Source: a virus. From it: a DNA stretch of 45,791 nt. Location: the IMG/VR virus record IMGVR_UViG_3300029857_000010; one strand, 5' to 3'. Positions 1,628 through 39,200 of this stretch are shown here, one piece after another. The notes under the pieces were generated by a model. That model saw only the letters and a list, made by a program, of their open reading frames with translations. It searched no databases and was not told the origin of the DNA. Made by a program: the position numbers and the translations under genes. The number at the start of each line of letters is the position of its first letter. Positions within the stretch are counted from its first letter, which is position 1.

Positions 1628-4600
1628 TCAATCTTTTTTACGTTCGCTTTTTGGTCTGCGCTTGTAAATATCTTGCAGTTCAAAATCCATATCACCAGCA
1701 GCAATATCTATGCTGTTGAATATGATATTGAAGATGCCGGCAGGAACGCCAAGAAATGCACCGCCGACATATGCAGACTGCTCTATCAGTTCGCCAGTTC
1801 CTTCTTCGCCTCTGGCAACCTTGCCCAAACGGCGATAGACTGTCATGCCTTTATCAATCAGTCCTTGTGCCGCAGTCAGCCTGTAACCGTAGTTTTTCAT
1901 GCCTAGCAAGCATTGTATGCCGATATTTGCAAATTGGCCGTAAGGTCCACCCATAGACAACGGGTAGTTGATAAGTTCTTTTGACAATTTACGATAGCCG
2001 TCCTTATCTTTCTCAAAAGGAGCAGTCAAAGAAAGCTCTGCCATAGCCACGTTCAGCAAGCACACGCCGAGGAATTTGGCACCAGCAAAAGCAATCAGCC
2101 GTTCAGCCATTTCTTTTTTCTCACCGCTATTCCATAACCTTTTAACAATATGTGCTTCTCTGTCCCATTGGTTAAATTGTGTATTGAAAAATCCCTGGAA
2201 CATCGTAAACAATCTGAATAAGCCGCTATTTCGTTGCATACTTGATACATCATGAATACGACTACTGCCTAACGTGCGGCGAATAACAGTGTTCGCAAAG
2301 TCTAGTGCTTCCTGCTCTGTTTTGCCTTCGTTGATTTTCTTCATGTATGCTTCTGCAAATACCGGCTTTGCAGTCATCATATCAGTGTAGCCTAAAAGCA
2401 TTGCACCATATTTCAGCGTCCTTTTTTCAATCGGGTTAAGGTCAGAACGGTTCTGAATATCCCTTAACGTAATGTCTGGCACTCGCGAACGCTCACGCAT
2501 AAATGCGCTTTTGGCACAAATAGCGTCTACTTCTGCTCTGCCTTCACCTGTAAAACTGCGAAGTAAGGCTCTGAAAGCATCAGCATGAGTAAAGCCTTTT
2601 GTACTATTGCCGTAAAGAAATATGTTAGTAGTGTTCTGCATTATCGTTTTAAAATTAAACATAATAGCCGCATTTGTTGCAACATTACGCAAAGCGTCAG
2701 CAATCTTCGTAAACGTCGTTTCAGCCATGTATGCTGTCCTGCTACCATATGGGTTAGCGCAAGCCTGCAAAAACTCTCTCAAAAGTCTTACGTTTGTATC
2801 GCCTAAACGCTCAACCATGTTGCGGTAAATATCCTCATCGTTCAGTATCTTTCTGAAATCAAGCATTGTTTCGCGATAACAAATATCATGAATGTATTTT
2901 TTTACCGCCGTAACCTCACTGCCACGCGATAAGTCTACGGGATATTTGCCGCCGGTACGTGCTTTACTTGCGCTAGTATCCGTAGTCAAAGTCCGTTGCG
3001 GCGGTCTGCTGCCTTCTTCGGTACTGTCGATTCTGTCAAATTTTCCGGGCATACTGCCGGTGCGTGTATCACGTTCCAACGGGAAGTAACCACCTTCAAA
3101 TACCACGCTTTCACCGCTTGCAAGCTTCAGCACCAGCGGTGACGCTTCAATCTTCGGCGGCTCAAAGCCTTTTGTTCTGCGGTTGACTTCTGCCAGCATA
3201 GGCCAGAATTTACTTGCTGCATTGATACGCGCCTGGGCATAAGCAATATCTGCTTTAGTCAGATGCTTGCACAAAAACTCTATAAGGTTTTGTTTGGTTT
3301 GCAGCATTGCTTCTTCTTTGCCTATAAGCTCCGATTCTTCCACCCATATATCAGAATTCTTTACGCCTACCGGTTTTTGCGAACACAGCCTTGCGGCGTT
3401 ACTATCACTGCCAAGGTTGCACAGCATAGCAATCAAAGCATGCTTATCTGCGCTACCGCCAAGCTCTTCGTAGTAAATCCTTGTATCATGCGCAATGCCT
3501 GCTTTCTTGTCCGGCTCCCATTTCTGTAAAGCATCTATAAGCTCGTTCTGGTAACTTTCAAGCATCGTGCTTTCCATATCTGCACAATGGTTGATTTTGT
3601 TGTAAAACTCCCTAGTAAAATAACCTTCTTCCGTCCAATTATCCATCATCAAGAAAAAGTTATCAGCGTTACGCAGTGTAGCTATGATATTTTTAGGCCA
3701 GTCAATAATTCGCTTACGCAGGCTCTTTTTACTGTCGCTGCCAATCTCCGCCTCGTACTCTACCGGCAATTCTTGCAGGTGCGCTATCGTATCAGCCTTA
3801 ACCTGTTCAAAAGCTTCACCGGCGGCAATCTTATTCATCTTCGTATCTTGCTTTGCAATAGCACGAATGTTTTTCAGTGCGTCGATAACGTCCATGTAGT
3901 TTGCAAGGCTAAGCTGCGGCGCATTGGTCAAATCGTTATTCGGGTTCAAAACAAACTCCGGCATAGAAATAATTTCGTCGCCGTACTTTGCCTGCATCTC
4001 TGCAATGTACTCGCTAAGCGACTGCACCTCTCTACCGTTGGTGTTAAAGTCCTTGCGATGGTAGCCCATACGCTCCAGCAAAGCGCACATCTGGAAGAAG
4101 TGCTGCTCTGTTCCCCATACTTCTTTCTTGCTGTGCATCTGCTTTTTGACGTACTTTCTTGCGCTTTCAATCTGGTGTTTGGCCTTGACTGCTTCACGAT
4201 ACAAAGCATGGTTAATCATCTGCTGCTGCTTATACATAGCCGCTTCTTCCAAAAGGCCGGCTTTAGCAGCCTTATTTGCATTAGCCGCCGCTCTGCGTTC
4301 CGCCATAGCAAATCTTCTCGGCTTCATAACCTCGCCTGCGGGCAAAGTCTGAATATAGCGTTTAGCAAAATTATCTGCGTTCTGCTTACGCACTTTAGCA
4401 ATATTCTCACGCTCTTTTTGCTTAATATCCTTGTCGCTTATTTCATTAAGTGCTTCATCAATAAGCTGTTGTTCAAGTGCAACCACTTCGCCGCTTTCGT
4501 CATTGTAGAGTGCTTCCCTTGCCGCTTCTCTTGCCTGCTCACGCTCCTGCATGAAGTCGGGGAATCTGCGGTTTACGGCCTTGTCAATCTCTTGACGTAC

Positions 4601-21996: not shown

Positions 21997-22350
21997 TTAT
22001 GTTTTGGTAGCATCTTCTGAACAATCGTTTACAACTATCGCATCATCTGCCGCGCCCCAATGATACACGGCCGGCCCCTTGTTGGCGTGCGTCTGCTTGT
22101 CAAACGCGCCTATACTGTCAGCATACATCTTAGACGCTGCTAATCTATCCTTGTTGCTGGCCTTGTTATCAGTCATTATCTTGAGCCAGTAGGCTTGCAG
22201 GTCCTGCACAGCCAGGACGGCTACAGCCGCGCCCTGCTGTTTGAGCAGCGCCGCACAATCCTCTAACGTCTGCGGCGTTGTTGCTATTGCCGGTGGTCTG
22301 CCTCTTGTCGGTGTATTTGTATTAGCTAATAAACTTTTAATCTTAAACAT
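21997..22350 (-). CDS. putative terminase small subunit, 117 aa
   Basis: Small ORF immediately upstream of TerL on the same strand. The N-terminal TRGRPP motif suggests DNA binding. The weak SD makes the start uncertain (the track's longer start is at 22437). Confidence 0.4.
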   Translation of the reverse strand: MFKIKSLLANTNTPTRGRPPAIATTPQTLEDCAALLKQQGAAVAVLAVQDLQAYWLKIMTDNKASNKDRLAASKMYADSIGAFDKQTHANKGPAVYHWGAADDAIVVNDCSEDATKT

Positions 22351-22637
22351 TTCCGTCACATTCTCGTTACAATCTCTGTAACTGTATATACAATTAATAT
22401 TATTAATAATGACAATCAGTAAACAATACATTAACAATACATATTGAAAAGATAATCATTATTTACCAGAAAAAGACAATAAAAAAATGATTAACAGAAT
22501 CCATCTGTCAATCATCAATTAAATTATATTTATTATCTTGCTATAAATTATATACCCTAAAAAATGCTATTAAGTCAATGACACATTATTATTTTTTTGT
22601 GAACTGTCTTAACATATTATAAATGTTGCTGAATAAA

Positions 22638-22680
22638 GAAGAACGGCCGCCGCTGAACATCTGCCAGCGTGCGGCCGTTG
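22638..22680 (-). terminator. stem-loop downstream of the HTH gene, a putative terminator
   Basis: Inverted repeat AACGGCCGC…GCGGCCGTT followed by T-rich sequence on the minus strand. Confidence 0.4.
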
Positions 22681-29234: not shown

Positions 29235-29690
29235 TTAGTTCTTCTTTCTCTCCCTCGCTCCGCACTTCTGCGGCGTATTCTCACACCGCTTGCAAGGTCT
29301 GTCGCACTCACAACAGCAGATGTGCAGCAGAGTGCTTATCGTGCAGTCCGGTGTAACAGCCCTGCAATAGTATTTAGGCTTTAAGCGTGCTTCTAGTGCG
29401 CTAGCAGTTTCATCCTGCTGCGTAATGGTTTCCGGCGGTTTCGGTGCACCCGTCAGCCCCTTTACCTTTGCTTTACATCTCAGCAGGCCACAAGATTTTT
29501 CCTTGCCTTTCTTAAACTCCCAGATGGTCACTTTTTTTGTTTTGCCACAATCGCAACGCACCAAGAAGTAAGCTGAACCCCTATCCTGGTAGCCTAAATA
29601 CTTCTCAACAGTCAGCGTGCCAAATTTCACGCCAACCCATGCCGTCCAATTATTCACGCCAGCACCTCCAAAGTAAGCGTATCGCCACAT
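29235..29690 (-). CDS. cysteine-rich hypothetical protein, 151 aa
   Basis: ORF with multiple CxxC-type clusters. Confidence 0.45.
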   Translation of the reverse strand: MWRYAYFGGAGVNNWTAWVGVKFGTLTVEKYLGYQDRGSAYFLVRCDCGKTKKVTIWEFKKGKEKSCGLLRCKAKVKGLTGAPKPPETITQQDETASALEARLKPKYYCRAVTPDCTISTLLHICCCECDRPCKRCENTPQKCGARERKKN

Positions 29691-30274
29691 TTCAGCAGCT
29701 TACTTTTACAAGGCTCATTATGCTTGCGGCTGTACGTAAAGTCGTTCATGTAGCATTGCAGGATACGGAATTGATTGTCAATAGCGTTATCATTCAAGCC
29801 AATCTGCCGGCCGTACTCAAACACTGCTTTATCCTGCGGCATATACGGCATAATGAGCCGGTGTTCCGTCAACTTTGCCGCCGTCCATTTCAGCAGCATA
29901 CTGTTCAGCCTATCAGCAAGCGGCTTGCCGTCGCTCAGCTTCTCCATGTTGCAGCGGTTTATATTCTCCTGCACATGAGCTTCTTCTGCCTGCTTCAAAG
30001 CAGCCTGCATCAGCGCCGGGCTGATTATATTCACGTTAAGGCCGTTCGCACCGGTCAAGGTAAGCGCTATCTGCTCTGCCTTCTCCCACCGGTCAAGGCC
30101 TATATTTTGCTGATTAAAAATTCCTGCCCAAAGGTTTACCGTTTCGGACAAGATTCTTTTCGCTTCTTCCAGGCGGTCAAAGCCGGGCCGTATATCCTGC
30201 GGCATCCGCTTGCCTGCCTGTTGCAGTTTAACAATCGTTTGGGCTATTCTCTGCTGTTGCAGCATCGCCCTCAC
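29654..30274 (-). CDS. hypothetical protein downstream of the replisome organizer, a possible replication accessory or loader-like protein, 206 aa
   Basis: ORF placed immediately after the replisome organizer. No Walker motif seen. Confidence 0.4.
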   Translation of the reverse strand: MRAMLQQQRIAQTIVKLQQAGKRMPQDIRPGFDRLEEAKRILSETVNLWAGIFNQQNIGLDRWEKAEQIALTLTGANGLNVNIISPALMQAALKQAEEAHVQENINRCNMEKLSDGKPLADRLNSMLLKWTAAKLTEHRLIMPYMPQDKAVFEYGRQIGLNDNAIDNQFRILQCYMNDFTYSRKHNEPCKSKLLKCGDTLTLEVLA

Positions 30275-31067
30275 CTCCTACATCTCCGTAAAGTTCGTTT
30301 ACCAGGTCCATGCCAGAATATCCGGCACCTGCATTCTGCTTCTTGCTGTTGCCGCTGGCATAGTTTCTTGCTACGGTCTGCACATACGCAAAGTTTCTTG
30401 CGCCGTGCTCAACCGCCGCTAATATTCCCTGTTCAACGGCAGCCTCACCAACCTCACCTAACAAGGCCTGCAGTTTTTCTCCGACGATTGGAGTAAGCGG
30501 CATCATGTTTTTCTCCCATAAGGCAAAAATTTCAGTATGCGTTTTTTCATCGTCATTTCTTTTAGGATGATGATAATCATCCTTTTCTTTATCTCTATAC
30601 TCTATACTCTTATCTCTAATCTCTGTCGGACATTTTGTCCCTTTTTCTGGGGACATTTTGTCCCCAGTTTTCGGGACATTTTGTCCCTTTTTATTTTGAC
30701 GTTGCGTCTTTTTCTTCGTCGCTGATTCTGACGCACTACCGCTGCCGGTCATATTAGCAACCTCCGGCAAGTAGTTTTCGCCTTTATCGTTCTTCTCAAT
30801 AAGGCCAATTTGTTCAAACAAAGCAAGCGCACTTTCGACAACTTCAATATCAAATTGCGTCTGTTTAGCGATTGATTCAGCCGTATGCTGAATGGTCATT
30901 TTGCCGACCTGCCGAACAAGCGCGCCGTCAGTTTTCAGCGACTTTAAGCACAGTTTAAGGTATAAGAGTACGTATTTTTCGCCGTTTTCCTGGTCCTCTA
31001 ACCACTCAACAACATCACTTTCAAAGAAGTTTTCGTTGAGTTTTAACCAATAATACCTGCCAGCCAT
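30228..31067 (-). CDS. phage replisome organizer with a DnaD-like C-terminal domain, 279 aa
   Basis: N-terminus MAGRYYWLKLNENFF…LLYLKL is the replisome-organizer signature. C-terminus IFALWEKNMMPLTP…FAYVQTVARNY is the DnaD-domain signature. Iterons are embedded in the linker. Confidence 0.7.
   Translation of the reverse strand: MAGRYYWLKLNENFFESDVVEWLEDQENGEKYVLLYLKLCLKSLKTDGALVRQVGKMTIQHTAESIAKQTQFDIEVVESALALFEQIGLIEKNDKGENYLPEVANMTGSGSASESATKKKTQRQNKKGQNVPKTGDKMSPEKGTKCPTEIRDKSIEYRDKEKDDYHHPKRNDDEKTHTEIFALWEKNMMPLTPIVGEKLQALLGEVGEAAVEQGILAAVEHGARNFAYVQTVARNYASGNSKKQNAGAGYSGMDLVNELYGDVGGEGDAATAENSPNDC
30628..30687. repeat. three iterons GGGACATTTTGTCCC (half-sites GGGACA/TGTCCC) at 22-23 bp spacing inside the replisome-organizer gene, followed by AT-rich tract 30688-30725; a candidate origin of replication
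   Basis: Copies at 30628-30641, 30649-30665 and 30673-30687. Adjacent T-rich stretch ctttttattttgacgttgcgtctttttcttc. Confidence 0.6.
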
Positions 31068-31070
31068 GTT

Positions 31071-31379
31071 TTACTCCTCGAAGTATGTCGGCACTTCGTA
31101 CACCATTTTATTGTTCTTGCGGTATACCTTGATTCTTCCGTCCTTCTTGCAGAACTTCAAAAATCTGTACCAACGTTTCGGGTTACTTCTTCTATAAGAG
31201 TAAATAGAAATAAGATGAAGCCCAGCCGCTCTCTTGATAAGCTCAAAGAATAAGTCGAAAGCATCTGGCTTTGCTTCTTCTAAATCGTCCGCAAATTTGT
31301 TGCTGAAGCCAAAGTGTCCCTCACCGACAAGAACTATTGCTTTACTTTTTTCGCACGGTGTCGCTTTTACATTCAACAT
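31071..31379 (-). CDS. hypothetical protein, 102 aa
   Basis: ORF whose start codon overlaps a partial iteron. Basic C-terminus. Confidence 0.45.
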   Translation of the reverse strand: MLNVKATPCEKSKAIVLVGEGHFGFSNKFADDLEEAKPDAFDLFFELIKRAAGLHLISIYSYRRSNPKRWYRFLKFCKKDGRIKVYRKNNKMVYEVPTYFEE

Positions 31380-31468
31380 TTTGTCCCGCTCCTTTCAAAT
31401 TTTTCGGGGACATTTTGTCCCAAAGTTAGGGGACATTTTGTCCCCGCTTTTCGGGACATTTTGTCCCC
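31375..31468. repeat. second cluster of the same GGGACATTTTGTCCC motif: three full copies at 23-bp spacing plus one partial, in the intergenic/promoter region
   Basis: Copies at 31406-31421, 31429-31445 and 31453-31468; partial copy at 31375-31387. Confidence 0.6.
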
Positions 31469-31479
31469 AATGTTTTTTG

Positions 31480-32322
31480 TTATTTCATACTTGCTTCAAT
31501 TTCTTCTGCCGTGAAGATTTCGCCGGTTACAGTATCAACCTTGCCACCCTCTGTAAGCTCCTGCGCTTGCTCTGTAGCGTTCTCTGCGTCAACGTCGATG
31601 TATTCAGCCTCACCGGTTTCTTCGTTGAGCACAGCGGCTTTTCCGTCGCTCTCTAATGCTTCTTGCATCTCGATTGACATAGGCGCATAAGTTTTCATGA
31701 TAGACAGCAACACAGTTTTGCAGGCCATAGCGTCAAAATCAGACTGCCACGGGCCACTGTTGAAAGCCTTGCTAAAGCGTTTAGCGTGGCTGATAACTTC
31801 TTCTTTAGTCCAGTATGCGGTCTTGCTAAAGCCGTTAATGGTTTCAAATCTTGCGAAGTAGCCTACGATGTTTTCGGAAGTTTTTTCGCCCGGCGTGTAT
31901 GCCTCGGTGAATCTGTTCCAATCTCTGATTTCGCCTTCGTACACCGGCGTCATAATGATATGTTTCATCTTGCCCGTGCGCATTGCAAGCTCAATCACGC
32001 CCTTGTAACCAATCTGGAATTGAGCGCTGCCTTTATACGGAACAATCCATGCTTTACCCAAAGACGGGTTAATAGGCAGGTCCAGGCTTGCAGCAGTCGC
32101 AGCCGCCGCCAGAATAGTTTTCGGGTTCGCCGTGGCCAGCAATTTATTATTGTTAGTCAGTGTCAGCAAAGAGGAAAGAAAGCCTGCGCTTTTCTTGCCT
32201 AACATCTTCTCAAAACGTTGTTGTACGCTTTGAGAACCAATCATCACACCTAATGCAGAAGGTGCTTTGCTAGCGGCCGCAGGTGCTGCCGCTCTTTTTG
32301 TAATACCTTTTACTGTTGCCAT
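31480..32322 (-). CDS. recT: RecT-family single-strand annealing protein
   Basis: Segment GPWQSDFDAMACKTVLLSIMKTYAPMSIEMQEALESD matches the conserved RecT region GPW…MAKKTAIRRLFKYLP.SIE.Q. Confidence 0.75.
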   Translation of the reverse strand: MATVKGITKRAAAPAAASKAPSALGVMIGSQSVQQRFEKMLGKKSAGFLSSLLTLTNNNKLLATANPKTILAAAATAASLDLPINPSLGKAWIVPYKGSAQFQIGYKGVIELAMRTGKMKHIIMTPVYEGEIRDWNRFTEAYTPGEKTSENIVGYFARFETINGFSKTAYWTKEEVISHAKRFSKAFNSGPWQSDFDAMACKTVLLSIMKTYAPMSIEMQEALESDGKAAVLNEETGEAEYIDVDAENATEQAQELTEGGKVDTVTGEIFTAEEIEASMK

Positions 32323-32810
32323 TATTCTTTATCTCCTTTAAACGCTTTTTCAATTCTTTGAAACTTATCTTCTAATGCCCGTACTCTTTCTTGCAGAGAG
32401 TTTATATACTCCATTACATCGGGAGCACTGCCAGAAGAATAATATGCTCTATTTTGCCCGCTGTCCGTCACCACCAGCAAATCCGGGAGCGGCTGCAAAT
32501 CAAATTTTTTCTTTGAGTTCGTAAACTTTTCCAAGTAACTCTGCTGGAGTGCTGTTGTGTCAGGGTTATAAGAAAGTAATCTTTTATCAATGCCTAACGC
32601 TTCAGCAACCGCGTTGCGATTAACCTTTCTGATTGATTTTATGACGCCGCTTTCCCAAAAGCCTATCGTTGCTGCCGCTACACCAACTGCCTTAGCGAGG
32701 TCTGATTGTGTCATGTCTGTGCATTTGCGGGCACGCTTAATGATTTCTCTTACAAGCGCCCACTTTTCCTCTTCCTTCATTCTTCTTTTAATCTCCTTAA
32801 TTTCAAACAA
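32322..32810 (-). CDS. XRE-family HTH protein, 162 aa
   Basis: HTH MTQSDLAKAVGVAAATIGFWESG. Confidence 0.55.
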   Translation of the reverse strand: MFEIKEIKRRMKEEEKWALVREIIKRARKCTDMTQSDLAKAVGVAAATIGFWESGVIKSIRKVNRNAVAEALGIDKRLLSYNPDTTALQQSYLEKFTNSKKKFDLQPLPDLLVVTDSGQNRAYYSSGSAPDVMEYINSLQERVRALEDKFQRIEKAFKGDKE

Positions 32811-33034
32811 TCCTTTTCGCTGTCATACAGAATTTCTTCCAGCGACAAGTCTAATGCTTGTGCCAATTTTACACGTGTACGCAATGCAATATTTTTAACT
32901 ACGCCGCATTCGTATGCGCTAATGGTCGGCTTTTCCACGCCAACCATTAGCGCAACTTCACCTTGCAGCAGGCTTAATTCCTTCCGCTTATGGAACAAGG
33001 TTACGCCTAATCTCTCCTGCTCTGTAAGGCTCAT
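32777..33034 (-). CDS. XRE-family HTH protein, 85 aa
   Basis: HTH LSLLQGEVALMVGVEKPTISAYECG. Confidence 0.55.
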   Translation of the reverse strand: MSLTEQERLGVTLFHKRKELSLLQGEVALMVGVEKPTISAYECGVVKNIALRTRVKLAQALDLSLEEILYDSEKDCLKLRRLKEE

Positions 33035-33975
33035 TTTAACGTGAACCTCATACTAGGCTTGCCAACCTTGGCATACTTTTCGTACACGTCCGGCAGGTCT
33101 TTTTTCAGTGCCTTTTTGTCCAGCGTTACTCTTCCGGCAATCTGTATATAGGTAATTTTTCTATCCATAAACACGCCGCTTTCGCTGCCGTTCAGCATGA
33201 GCTTCAAGGCGTTTTGTGCCTGCGCTAACTGTTCTTCCAGTACCTTTTTCGTTGCCGTCAGTCCGTCAATACACTTAATGTATTGCTCTGCTGCGCTAGG
33301 CAGCGCGATACTGTCAACCGCTAACTTATCCTTATTCATTTTGTCAATGGTTGCGGCAGTGCTTTCGCTGCCGTCAACCTCCGGCGGGATATTGCTCTGG
33401 AGGTTATTCCAGAATATAATCGCTTGCGCTCTCATATCCGAAATAAACTCATCGTTGCGCGGAATTTCTTTCCATACAAAATGATTGCCGCCGATTAAGC
33501 AGGCAATATACCACTTCTCGCAACCGGTAATCATCATGTACCATTGACACTGGCAATAGTAGCTGTCTGGCAGCTCGTCACCGTCCCAATCTTTCGACTT
33601 AAAGCCGTTCGCGGTCTTACATTCAAGGCCTGCGCTTTCACCCACCACTAATCTGTCGACGTTCGCAAGCATGAAATCATAGCTTTCATCTTGCAACGTG
33701 CCGCACTTGCGTACCTTTTTACCGGTCAGCTCACAGAATCTGTCAGCTACAACCTGCTCAAGCACCGTACCCCAATATACAAATTCGTTGTTAGAGAGGT
33801 CTTCCGGTTCAACATCGCCATGCTTTTCAGCGTAGAGTGCGTAAGCGCTCTTCCAGGGATTTAGTCCCATGATGCAGGCAATATCACTGCCGCCGATACC
33901 ACTATTGCGGACGCGTTCCCACGCCACGCGGTCAGCGGCTTGCTCAACTGTCATAATCAGTTTACCCTTCATCAA
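33031..33975 (-). CDS. YqaJ-type (lambda Exo-like) recombination exonuclease
   Basis: N-terminal motif GIGGSDIACIMGLNPWKSAYALY is typical of the YqaJ domain. Lies upstream of recT. Confidence 0.7.
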   Translation of the reverse strand: MMKGKLIMTVEQAADRVAWERVRNSGIGGSDIACIMGLNPWKSAYALYAEKHGDVEPEDLSNNEFVYWGTVLEQVVADRFCELTGKKVRKCGTLQDESYDFMLANVDRLVVGESAGLECKTANGFKSKDWDGDELPDSYYCQCQWYMMITGCEKWYIACLIGGNHFVWKEIPRNDEFISDMRAQAIIFWNNLQSNIPPEVDGSESTAATIDKMNKDKLAVDSIALPSAAEQYIKCIDGLTATKKVLEEQLAQAQNALKLMLNGSESGVFMDRKITYIQIAGRVTLDKKALKKDLPDVYEKYAKVGKPSMRFTLK

Positions 33976-37933: not shown

Positions 37934-38953
37934 ATGAAATTACCTAACGGCTATGGCTCTGTTACGAAGCTGACCGGGAACCGGCGGCGGCCGTATATGG
38001 TCCGCATTACAACGGGCTTTACCGATGAAGGTCGCCAGCTTATGAAAATACTAGGCTACTATGCAAAGCGCACGGAAGCCCTTAATGCCCTGGCTGAATA
38101 CAATCAATCACCCTATGATGTTGAAAGCGTAGGCTTGACGTTTGCCCAGGTACACGAGAGATGGGAAGCCGCAACCTACGTTGACGGCAAAGAGCAATCT
38201 AACCAATATAAGGCAGCATATAAGCGCTGCGCGCCACTATGGGATATACCGTTCAAAGATATTAAGACTGCGCAATTTCAGCAAGTCATAAATGACTGCG
38301 ACAAAGGCTACGCTACCAAGAAGGCAATCCGAATCGTATGTAATCTGATGGCCAAATATGCGCTTGCTAATGATATTATAGTAAAAAATTATGTTGAGCT
38401 TACTAGCCTACCGCCCCAGGTTGAAAGCAGAATACACAATCCGCTTACTAAAAAGGAGCTTGCTATATTATGGGAAAACAGCAAGGATATAAAAGTGCAA
38501 GCCGTGCTTATCCTCTGTTATACCGGCATGCGCCCCACCGAGCTAGTGAAGGTTGAGAAGGCGAACGTCGACTTTGAAAATAAATTCTTCGTTGGCGGCA
38601 TGAAAACTGCGGCAGGCCGCGGCAGAAGAATTCCTATTGCTGATAAAATATTCGACTTCTTCAAGGATGCTTGTGAACGCAGCACCGGCGAATATATCTT
38701 TTCTGATGAACGGGGCAAGAATATATCCTATGACGCATACCGCAGCAGATATTGGGAACCGGTAATGAATATGTTTAAGATGGACCACTTGCCCGGTGAC
38801 GGCCGCCACACTTGCGCAAGCCTGCTTGATGATAAAGACGTAAATGTAAAAATCAAGAAGCTAATTCTGGGGCACGCCAGCTCCGATGTAACGGAAAGGG
38901 TTTACACTCATAAGACGTTGGAACAACTATTAGAGGCTATAAATTTAATATAG
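37934..38953 (+). CDS. int: tyrosine recombinase / integrase with AP2-like arm-binding N-terminus
   Basis: N-terminus MKLPNGYGSVTKLTGNRRRPYMVRIT is the AP2-like arm-binding domain signature. Catalytic region has TGMRPTEL and LGHASSDVTERVYTH (H-x-x-R…Y). Confidence 0.8.
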   Translation: MKLPNGYGSVTKLTGNRRRPYMVRITTGFTDEGRQLMKILGYYAKRTEALNALAEYNQSPYDVESVGLTFAQVHERWEAATYVDGKEQSNQYKAAYKRCAPLWDIPFKDIKTAQFQQVINDCDKGYATKKAIRIVCNLMAKYALANDIIVKNYVELTSLPPQVESRIHNPLTKKELAILWENSKDIKVQAVLILCYTGMRPTELVKVEKANVDFENKFFVGGMKTAAGRGRRIPIADKIFDFFKDACERSTGEYIFSDERGKNISYDAYRSRYWEPVMNMFKMDHLPGDGRHTCASLLDDKDVNVKIKKLILGHASSDVTERVYTHKTLEQLLEAINLI

Positions 38954-39200
38954 TTTGTTACATACGTGTTACATATGTGTTACATACCTGTTACATACGT
39001 AGCTTATTTTCTATGAGCTGTGGACACTTTTTGAAAATAACGGAAGCAAAGAAAAAGCCAGCAACCTGCATGGTTACGGGCTTTTCTTGCGATTTGTGAT
39101 TGATTGAGATAGCCTTCTCTATTAACGTTTGGTAAATTGAGCACCCTTATTTTAAGCCATTCTTTACGCTATTTGTTACATACCTGTCACATACGATATG
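38954..39200. other. putative attP region with 11-bp arm-type direct repeats (TGTTACATAC-like)
   Basis: Four tandem 11-bp copies at 38954-38997 and two more at 39174-39195, flanking about 175 bp of noncoding sequence. They lie immediately 3' of int. Confidence 0.55.

Follow-up and report, generated by a model that had tools for sequence, protein, structure and literature searches.

A candidate replication origin in the linker of a replisome-organizer gene, with a second cluster of identical iterons upstream, in an uncultivated temperate phage

Introduction

Several phages carry their origin of replication inside the gene of the protein that initiates it. In lambda and the Stx phages the origin, comprising iterons and an AT-rich tract, lies in the middle of gene O (PMC7466680). 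In SPP1, oriL (iterons plus a DNA-unwinding element, DUE) lies within gene 38, the product of which, G38P, has a second binding region, oriR (PMC6316719, PMC5737612), where the bound protein has been proposed to stall forks and to trigger the theta-to-sigma switch together with an exonuclease, an annealase, SSB and a resolvase (PMC6316719). ORF13 of TP901-1 and Rep2009 of Tuc2009 bind in-gene repeats that serve as ori (PMC8965321); the Tuc2009 record itself annotates Rep as containing the origin. Here we describe a locus of this kind in a 45,791-nucleotide stretch of viral DNA, IMG/VR record IMGVR_UViG_3300029857_000010 (hereafter the window; position 1 is its first letter): two clusters of identical iterons, one within a replisome-organizer gene and the other upstream of it.

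Two further classes of replicon provide points of comparison. Among lambdoid phages the initiator N-domain and the specificity of the iterons are exchanged together. In the plasmids P1 (incC/incA) and mini-F (incB/incC), two clusters of identical iterons, spaced at ~22–23 bp, stand on either side of the initiator gene or of part of it, and only one of the clusters adjoins the unwinding element; P1 incA and mini-F incC are iteron control loci that lie outside the origin.

Results

An iteron cluster within the organizer gene

The principal features of the locus are as follows.

30228–31067, minus strand: replisome-organizer gene, 279 amino acids (aa), with an N-domain (aa ~7–127), a linker (aa ~128–176) and a DnaD-like C-domain (aa ~180–237)
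30627–30687, minus strand: iteron cluster A, in which (G)GGACAAAATGTCC(C), read in gene sense, occurs three times, with cores at 30628–30640, 30651–30663 and 30674–30686
30584–30626, minus strand: AT-rich heptamer tract, purine-rich in gene sense, with ~7-nt repeats GACAGAGATTAGAGATAAGAGTATAGAGTATAGAGATAAAGAA and three copies of AGAGAT
30564–30583, no strand assigned: 20-bp hairpin palindrome just past the AT-rich tract, AGGATGAT-GATA-ATCATCCT, with an 8-bp stem, coding for KDDYHHP
30688–30725, minus strand: T-rich linker-coding stretch, coding for the Lys/Arg-rich segment ATKKKTQRQNKK
31408–31466, minus strand: iteron cluster B, three exact cores at 31408, 31431 and 31454, spaced at 23 bp and oriented as in cluster A
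31374–31386, minus strand: a fourth, degenerate copy that reads GGACAAAATGTTG in gene sense and is set off from cluster B by 34 bp; translation of open reading frame ORF102 starts at its ATG

From comparisons of sequence we propose that cluster A and the TAGAGAT tract at 30584–30626, possibly with the hairpin at 30564–30583, constitute a theta origin placed in the linker of the initiator gene, and that cluster B is an auxiliary element. We put the probability of this reading at roughly 0.7.

The 13-nt core of cluster A, GGACATTTTGTCC, is present in exact copies that start at 30628, 30651 and 30674, such that both intervals are exactly 23 bp. Each unit is an imperfect palindrome: inverted arms of 5–6 nt (GGACA/TGTCC) flank an asymmetric TTT. 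A preliminary description of this DNA had reported a single array of three dyad-symmetric 15-mers at 22–23 bp. The three copies and the inverted arms are real, but the spacing does not vary, the centre breaks the symmetry, and the 15-mer GGGACATTTTGTCCC is exact in copies 2 and 3 only, copy 1 being CGGACATTTTGTCCC (it begins CGGACA). The element also proves to have two parts: to cluster A must be added the second, identical cluster at 31408–31466, which was missing from that account.

All copies in clusters A and B share a single orientation. With up to two mismatches the iteron has nine matches in the window against 0.96 expected, a number reached in none of 100 shuffles, and the two 23-nt arrays are the highest-scoring tandem repeats of the whole window; the same whole-window tandem-repeat scan revealed no competing iteron array. 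DnaA boxes are absent from 30–32 kb and are not enriched, an Rfam search of 29.5–32.5 kb gave no match, and a literature search for the 13-mer string found no paper that prints it.

Cluster A falls at organizer codons ~127–146, within the disordered linker. Because the period is 23 bp, the three copies lie in three different frames and are translated as GQNVP, DKMSP and GTKCP; since identical cores are thus read in three frames, the constraint acts on the DNA. Identical iteron DNA is found in cluster B, which occupies a non-coding gap.

The organizer and its domains

The N-domain matches PF09681 with 65.2 bits (cut-off 23.3; aa 7–126) and TIGR01714 with 74 bits (cut-off 49.8). The C-domain matches TIGR01446 (DnaD_dom) with 27.9 bits (cut-off 24.95) and Pfam DnaB_2 with 21.4 bits, just below the cut-off of 22. 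Among PHROG families the protein matches phrog_5968, ‘replisome organizer’; its one match of lambda O type, to phrog_345 (‘replication initiation O-like’, E = 8.4e-5), is far weaker than those to the organizer families, and no Pfam O-family match was returned. On these profile matches the organizer belongs to the curated PF09681/TIGR01714 family and not to the lambda O family. The label ‘lambda-like’ applied in the preliminary description consequently holds for architecture, that is, dyad iterons in the linker of an initiator, and not for family membership, because the organizer is not homologous to lambda O.

In the AlphaFold model the N-domain (aa 10–105) has predicted local distance difference test (pLDDT) values of 84–92, the linker (aa 128–176) values below 50 and the C-domain (aa 177–238) values of ~77. 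Together with the domain matches, the low values of the linker bear out the earlier placement of the repeats between the N- and C-terminal domains. A Foldseek search with the model returned DnaD at the top, followed by dimeric winged-helix regulators of the CRP, GntR and MarR types: the N-domain is modelled as a winged helix, and the folds nearest to it are those of DnaD and of dimeric regulators that bind palindromes. A search against the sequences of the PDB gave no match, and the best matches among annotated phage proteins are at most 35% identical. NCBI attributes a near-identical organizer to Phascolarctobacterium succinatutens.

An unstable, conserved tract beside cluster A

The tract at 30584–30626 is a period-7 repeat of TAGAGAT-like heptamers with ~31% GC. 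It is part of the least stable low-GC (~31%) stretch, around 30561–30627, which is among the most unstable ~1% of the window; within 30000–32000 no 60-nt stretch is less stable. Among 32 relatives the tract is conserved at 99.4–100%, the highest value in the region. The AGAGAT tract is retained beside different iterons, and also beside the same iteron in unrelated contexts, including one that is non-coding (locus L040). It is a candidate DNA-unwinding element or, alternatively, a candidate second recognition element.

The unwinding element had previously been assigned to the other flank, 30688–30725. That stretch is weakly AT-rich (36.8% GC, window 45.2%; 55% T and 8% A), but its duplex stability is unremarkable, at the 27th–29th percentile, and it is ordinary coding DNA: the plus strand is T-rich because it codes for the Lys/Arg-rich segment ATKKKTQRQNKK, and among N-domain variants this basic peptide is retained while the underlying DNA differs. 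The unstable and conserved tract is the one on the opposite flank.

Every variant with the same C-domain module also has the hairpin at 30564–30583. In gene sense the layout therefore reads iterons, AT-rich tract, palindrome. The origin of lambda has the same order of elements, with a palindrome in the same relative position.

A second cluster upstream

Cluster B lies 780 bp upstream of cluster A, in the 100-bp gap that extends from the stop codon of RecT to the ribosome-binding site of ORF102. The 34-bp spacing of the degenerate copy recurs in 16 distinct cluster sequences; the sequence of the copy itself is variable. Every relative in which the region is covered has cluster B (1–3 copies), whereas lineages with other N-domains have neither cluster B nor ORF102, and RecT directly abuts the organizer. 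Because cluster B, ORF102, the N-domain and cluster A are present or absent together across lineages, we regard them as one exchangeable module.

The flanks of cluster B contain no AGAGAT tract and are of unremarkable instability (11th–14th percentile), and a promoter scan found no minus-strand sigma-70-like promoter near it. As is characteristic of an auxiliary iteron locus, its cores, spacing and orientation are identical to those of the candidate origin, it stands outside that origin, and it is devoid of an unwinding element of its own. Cluster B is most likely an auxiliary organizer-binding site: what points to binding by the organizer is the identity of its iterons with those of cluster A.

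Natural domain swaps reveal what the iteron tracks

The relatives considered here (loci L001–L055) were fetched by requiring two exact 13-nt cores. In 52 distinct sequences of the clusters, taken from contigs of related viruses, conservation is 95–100% for the core, a figure inflated because the loci were chosen by two exact cores, and 38–79% for the spacers; there are 3–5 copies in cluster A and 3–4 in cluster B.

More telling are database homologs of the organizer with 55–68% overall identity. These have C-domains 90–96% identical to that of the window and keep both ORF206, the gene that follows, and the TAGAG tract or a purine-rich equivalent, but each carries a different N-domain (28–45% identical) together with different linker repeats:

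P0085: N-domain identity 28%; linker repeats GTGACAAGTCAC and GTCACGTGAC
P0110: N-domain identity 31%; linker repeats of TGTAACGTTACA type
P0072: N-domain identity 36%; linker repeats GGACATTTGTCC
P0068: N-domain identity 40%; linker repeats GGACAATGTCC
P0067: N-domain identity 45%; linker repeats GGACAAAACGTCC, inverted, together with TGTCC half-sites

One C-domain is thus joined to six types of N-domain, each accompanied by repeats of its own. The GGACA half-site is retained at N-domain identities of 36% or more and lost at 28–31%, and comparison of these sequences indicates that iteron specificity changes quickly within the window's own lineage. The reciprocal case is provided by L007, in which the N-domain is 47% identical, the C-domain 18% identical and no other gene is shared: here GGACAAAATGTCC is kept.

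In a co-occurrence matrix the iteron tracks the organizer N-domain and no other neighbouring protein. Loci L056 and L057 encode HTH85 and YqaJ proteins 100% identical to those of the window, yet they have no such iterons; L001, L030 and L043 lack HTH162, yet have 6–7 iterons; and L003, L007 and L055, which have only the N-domain in common with the window, retain the iterons.

We also observed that PF09681 N-domains at least 36% identical to that of the window (L061, 1380–1450; L060, 472–584; L062, 499–557) are accompanied by the GGACA/TGTCC half-site with a spacer of 1–3 nt, in an orientation that can flip.

The same iteron beside other initiators

The 13-mer is also found with initiators of other kinds, in Proteobacteria, Firmicutes and Planctomycetota (loci L063, L018, L081, L082, L070, L071, L075 and L040). 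At 22–23-bp spacing it occurs in or next to the initiator of Hafnia phage yong2 (L063; MZ516527, 2853–2958) and its Thermotalea and Ectobacillus relatives. It further stands beside HTH_36 proteins in a Planctomycetota metagenome-assembled genome and a 103-kb viral contig, beside a Clostridium protein without a Pfam match and, in nine copies, beside a Photobacterium Rep3 plasmid initiator. Of 12 independent Rep contexts, 7 have AGAGAT in the 80 nt 3′ of the iterons (14 occurrences, with 0.018 expected per stretch); it is present in none of the upstream 80-nt stretches. BLASTP and a profile–profile comparison detected no clear relation between window-type and Hafnia-type N-domains, with a probability of 21%, over the winged-helix core only.

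On the basis of these sequences we suggest, tentatively and with rather more doubt than confidence, that GGACAAAATGTCC at 22–23 bp together with 3′ AGAGAT repeats may be a mobile origin cassette, used in phages and plasmids by five or more classes of winged-helix initiator between which no sequence relationship is detectable: the organizers of PF09681, the type seen in Hafnia phage, Thermotalea and Ectobacillus, the HTH_36 proteins, the Clostridium protein without Pfam match and the Photobacterium Rep3 initiator. Should the cassette be of common origin rather than convergent, either a tiny recognition element has been conserved across diverged initiators or a part of the cassette (for example AGAGAT) is read by another factor. 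Sharing of this kind, if confirmed, would bear on the co-evolution of origins with initiators and on their movement between replicons.

Pairs of the 13-mer at 23-bp spacing were additionally seen in ~14 alphaproteobacterial chromosomes, mostly of Bradyrhizobium and also of Pararhizobium (L064–L067, L072, L076–L080, L083–L086). Their surroundings are GC-rich with no AT-rich tract, and the pair at 4026–4061 of L067 lies between convergent genes. These pairs probably have a different function; because they occur in GC-rich DNA without the tract, the 13-mer alone is no marker of an origin.

Neighbouring genes

The window, a temperate phage, encodes an integrase, a repressor, a terminase, a portal protein and a major head protein, and it has no helicase or primase gene. 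A nucleotide search of annotated phages returned a single 145-bp match, within RecT; because the match is limited to this segment, the phage has no close cultured relative. The host is probably the gut anaerobe Phascolarctobacterium. Around the organizer all genes are on the minus strand, in the order YqaJ exonuclease (33031–33975), two HTH_3 proteins (32322–33034), RecT (31480–32322), cluster B, ORF102, the organizer (30228–31067), ORF206, an HNH-like protein, RusA and SSB. The two small reading frames that flank the organizer are:

31071–31379, minus strand: ORF102, a 102-aa protein that always accompanies cluster B and the window-type N-domain
29654–30274, minus strand: ORF206, which shares 47 nt with the 3′ end of the organizer gene and is inherited along with the C-domain of the organizer

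ORF102 has no Pfam, PHROG, NCBIfam or PDB match. Its family is narrow (54 clusters, all at least 58% identical); both termini are invariant (basic NPKRWYRFLKFCKKDGRIKVYRKNNKMVYEVPTYFEE), and the middle is variable. With a pLDDT of 49 its AlphaFold model is unusable for fold assignment. ORF102 is absent from L003, L007 and L055; because these loci hold iterons without it, it is dispensable for the in-gene cluster.

ORF206, which has no family, PHROG or PDB match, is 88–99% identical wherever the organizer C-domain is 88–97% identical and is kept across all N-domain swaps. In L007, where the C-domain is different, a DnaC-like AAA+ protein takes its place. From this pattern of inheritance ORF206 may be a candidate helicase-loading partner of the C-domain.

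Other features of the window

Starting 3 bp past the integrase gene (37934–38953) is a tandem array, 38956–39000, of 4.1 copies of the 11-nt TGTTACATACG, which may represent attP-related sites or arm-type sites for the integrase. The least stable DNA of the window is a very AT-rich intergenic region at 22300–22650, located between the late (terminase) operon and an island of plus-strand genes at ~23–27 kb; it includes a small 11-nt repeat at 22422–22442 and may be a promoter or packaging region.

Discussion

A model for initiation

Taken together, the data suggest how replication might begin. Dimers of the winged-helix N-domain of the organizer would bind the three iterons, GGACA-AAA-TGTCC, set 23 bp apart, and the resulting nucleoprotein complex would destabilise the adjoining tract of low stability. 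The DnaD-like C-domain, probably with ORF206, would then recruit the helicase-loading machinery of the host, since the phage encodes neither helicase nor primase. Several roles can be envisaged for cluster B: it might serve for titration or form a loop with cluster A, mediate autoregulation of ORF102 and the organizer, or act as a fork barrier similar to SPP1 oriR. Such a barrier would aid a switch to recombination-dependent synthesis of concatemers by way of the YqaJ exonuclease, RecT, SSB and RusA.

A number of observations weigh against this interpretation. The organizer has no detectable sequence homology to SPP1 G38P, TP901-1 ORF13 or Tuc2009 Rep2009, the organizers characterised by experiment; a BLASTP comparison of TP901-1 ORF13 with the organizer was not significant. 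The same 13-mer accompanies initiators with N-domains that are not detectably related to that of the window, which leaves room for another factor that recognises it. Intergenic DNA at ~22.4, 1.5 and 37.8 kb is less stable than the TAGAG tract, and the way in which loci were chosen inflates core conservation, as stated above. GC skew is monotonic, with no inflection at 30.6 kb; because skew and cumulative skew are dominated by coding-strand bias, neither is of use for locating an origin here. Nor do lineages with other N-domains bear on what cluster B does, as they have no upstream cluster at all.

Alternative explanations

Replication might instead start at cluster B, or at A and B as a bipartite origin, with cluster A mainly serving regulation or titration. 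Cluster B is intergenic, as is the cassette in L040, L071, L073 and L068/69; a short stretch on one side of it (31467–31500) has 26.5% GC; and both G38P-bound regions of SPP1 are described as origins (PMC6316719). We nevertheless consider this unlikely: the AGAGAT/TAGAG tract that follows the iterons elsewhere is wanting at cluster B, whose flanks, as noted, are of ordinary stability, lineages with other N-domains have in-gene repeats and no upstream cluster, and relatives of the L007 type that share the iteron have the in-gene cluster only. It is also conceivable in principle that the iterons bind the organizer for autoregulation or in a partition-like role, the real origin being elsewhere, for example in the AT-rich intergenic region at ~22.4 kb, where DNA at 22385–22600 is less stable. 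The rest of the window, however, holds no array resembling iterons, and in experimentally characterised organizers the origin is at the in-gene repeats (PMC8965321, PMC5737612; Tuc2009 record), such that we regard a distant origin as quite improbable.

Other explanations concern what the repeats bind, if anything. That ORF102 rather than the organizer binds them, at least at cluster B and perhaps as a small protein that regulates the replication operon, would fit the joint presence and absence of ORF102 and cluster B, the position of the ORF102 start codon within a degenerate iteron and the invariant basic C-terminus of the protein. The same iterons nonetheless occur without an ORF102 homolog in L003, L007, L055, L018, L040 and other loci, and with a tiny family and a model of such low pLDDT no DNA-binding fold is demonstrable for ORF102: the proposal is improbable. 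With three 15-bp dyads at 23-bp spacing in each of two clusters, the window also recalls the layout of the lambda operators, and two HTH_3 genes are situated just upstream (32322–33034); as Cro/CI-type repressor operators, the two tripartite sets would loop like OL/OR and control early transcription. Cluster A, though, is in the middle of a gene, no coding-strand promoter-like site is found at cluster B, and the presence of HTH85 and HTH162 does not follow the sites in L056/L057, L001/L030/L043 or L003/L007/L055. We rejected the operator reading, which the co-occurrence matrix contradicts and which we hold to be very improbable. Least credible of all is the absence of any function at the level of DNA, with the repeats being a product of slippage in a low-complexity protein segment, or terminators or RNA hairpins. 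The linker is indeed of low complexity, copy number ranges from 3 to 5, and the palindromes register as plus-strand terminators in a scan for such sites; but these matches arise because the palindromes adjoin runs of T, are antisense with stems of 5–7 bp and have no counterpart in Rfam. Identical DNA read in three frames yields three different peptides, and the same DNA recurs at non-coding positions (cluster B, L040). The frame analysis refutes this reading.

Significance

The analysis delimits a precise candidate origin for an uncultivated temperate phage: ~165 bp (30564–30725), or ~125 bp if taken from the hairpin to the last iteron (30564–30687), plus a second site. From the series of swapped N-domains and iterons a code of specificity for this family of winged-helix proteins could be read, and the graded half-sites of the series are usable for studies of recognition. 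Practical uses are modest and include shuttle or ‘phage-encoded resistance’ constructs and the annotation of origins in metagenomic phages from linker repeats.

Comparison with known origins

Of the described systems, Tuc2009, in which protein and origin have been linked by experiment (PMC8965321), offers a close likeness in layout. All within rep (orf16), iterons spaced at ~22 bp lie in the linker after an N-region of winged-helix type and are followed by short purine-rich repeats, AGGATAGGATAGG... and GATAGTATAGG (GATAG/TATAG); the junction ‘...AAATGTCCGCACAGGATAGG’ resembles that of the window, ‘...AAATGTCCGACAGAGATTAG’, and SSAP (single-strand annealing protein), SSB and RusA are encoded in both neighbourhoods. 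A multiple alignment of iteron/tract junctions across contexts is noisy and supports resemblance, not homology. The differences are equally clear: the Tuc2009 iteron is CAACCAARTGWCAACCA, the C-domain is Rep_Org_C (PF06926), the N-domain does not match PF09681 and no second upstream cluster has been noted.

SPP1 shares with the window an in-gene origin with an adjacent DUE and a second repeat region, bound by the organizer in SPP1, as well as a recombination toolkit of exonuclease, RecT-like annealase, SSB and resolvase. Unlike the organizer of the window, G38P has Phg_2220_C and neither PF09681 nor DnaD, and SPP1 encodes its own loader (G39P) and helicase (G40P), whereas the window encodes neither. 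The SPP1 repeats are direct AB boxes, and oriR is ~13 kb away with its own DUE; cluster B, at a distance of 780 bp, is without a DUE. Because oriR has a DUE, P1 incA is the closer analogue of cluster B. Like P1 and mini-F, the window has two identical iteron clusters around an initiator gene; unlike these iteron plasmids, it is a phage, its initiator is not Rep3 and one of the clusters lies within coding sequence.

With lambda the window has in common an origin in the middle of a gene, iterons with a dyad around an A-rich centre (TCCCTC-AAAAC-GAGGGA in lambda) and the property that extra iterons add residues to the protein. As in the lambdoid phages, N-domain and iterons swap together, as seen in the domain-swap and co-occurrence data. 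Lambda O is not homologous to the organizer, and lambda has four iterons of 19 bp to the window's three of 13–15 bp; in the window a DnaD-like C-domain replaces the P-binding domain, and there is an extra iteron cluster upstream.

In examining the domains of the organizers already studied we observed that each has a different composition: Phg_2220_C in SPP1 G38P (L087), HTH_36 with DnaB_2 in TP901-1 ORF13 (L088) and Rep_Org_C in Tuc2009 Rep2009 (L089), none of them with PF09681. Because these three differ in make-up, the name ‘replisome organizer’ stands for varied combinations of N- and C-domains, a mosaic held together by a linker that bears the origin. The architecture of an origin within the initiator gene is already known from lambda, SPP1, Tuc2009 and TP901-1; to these the window adds another example.

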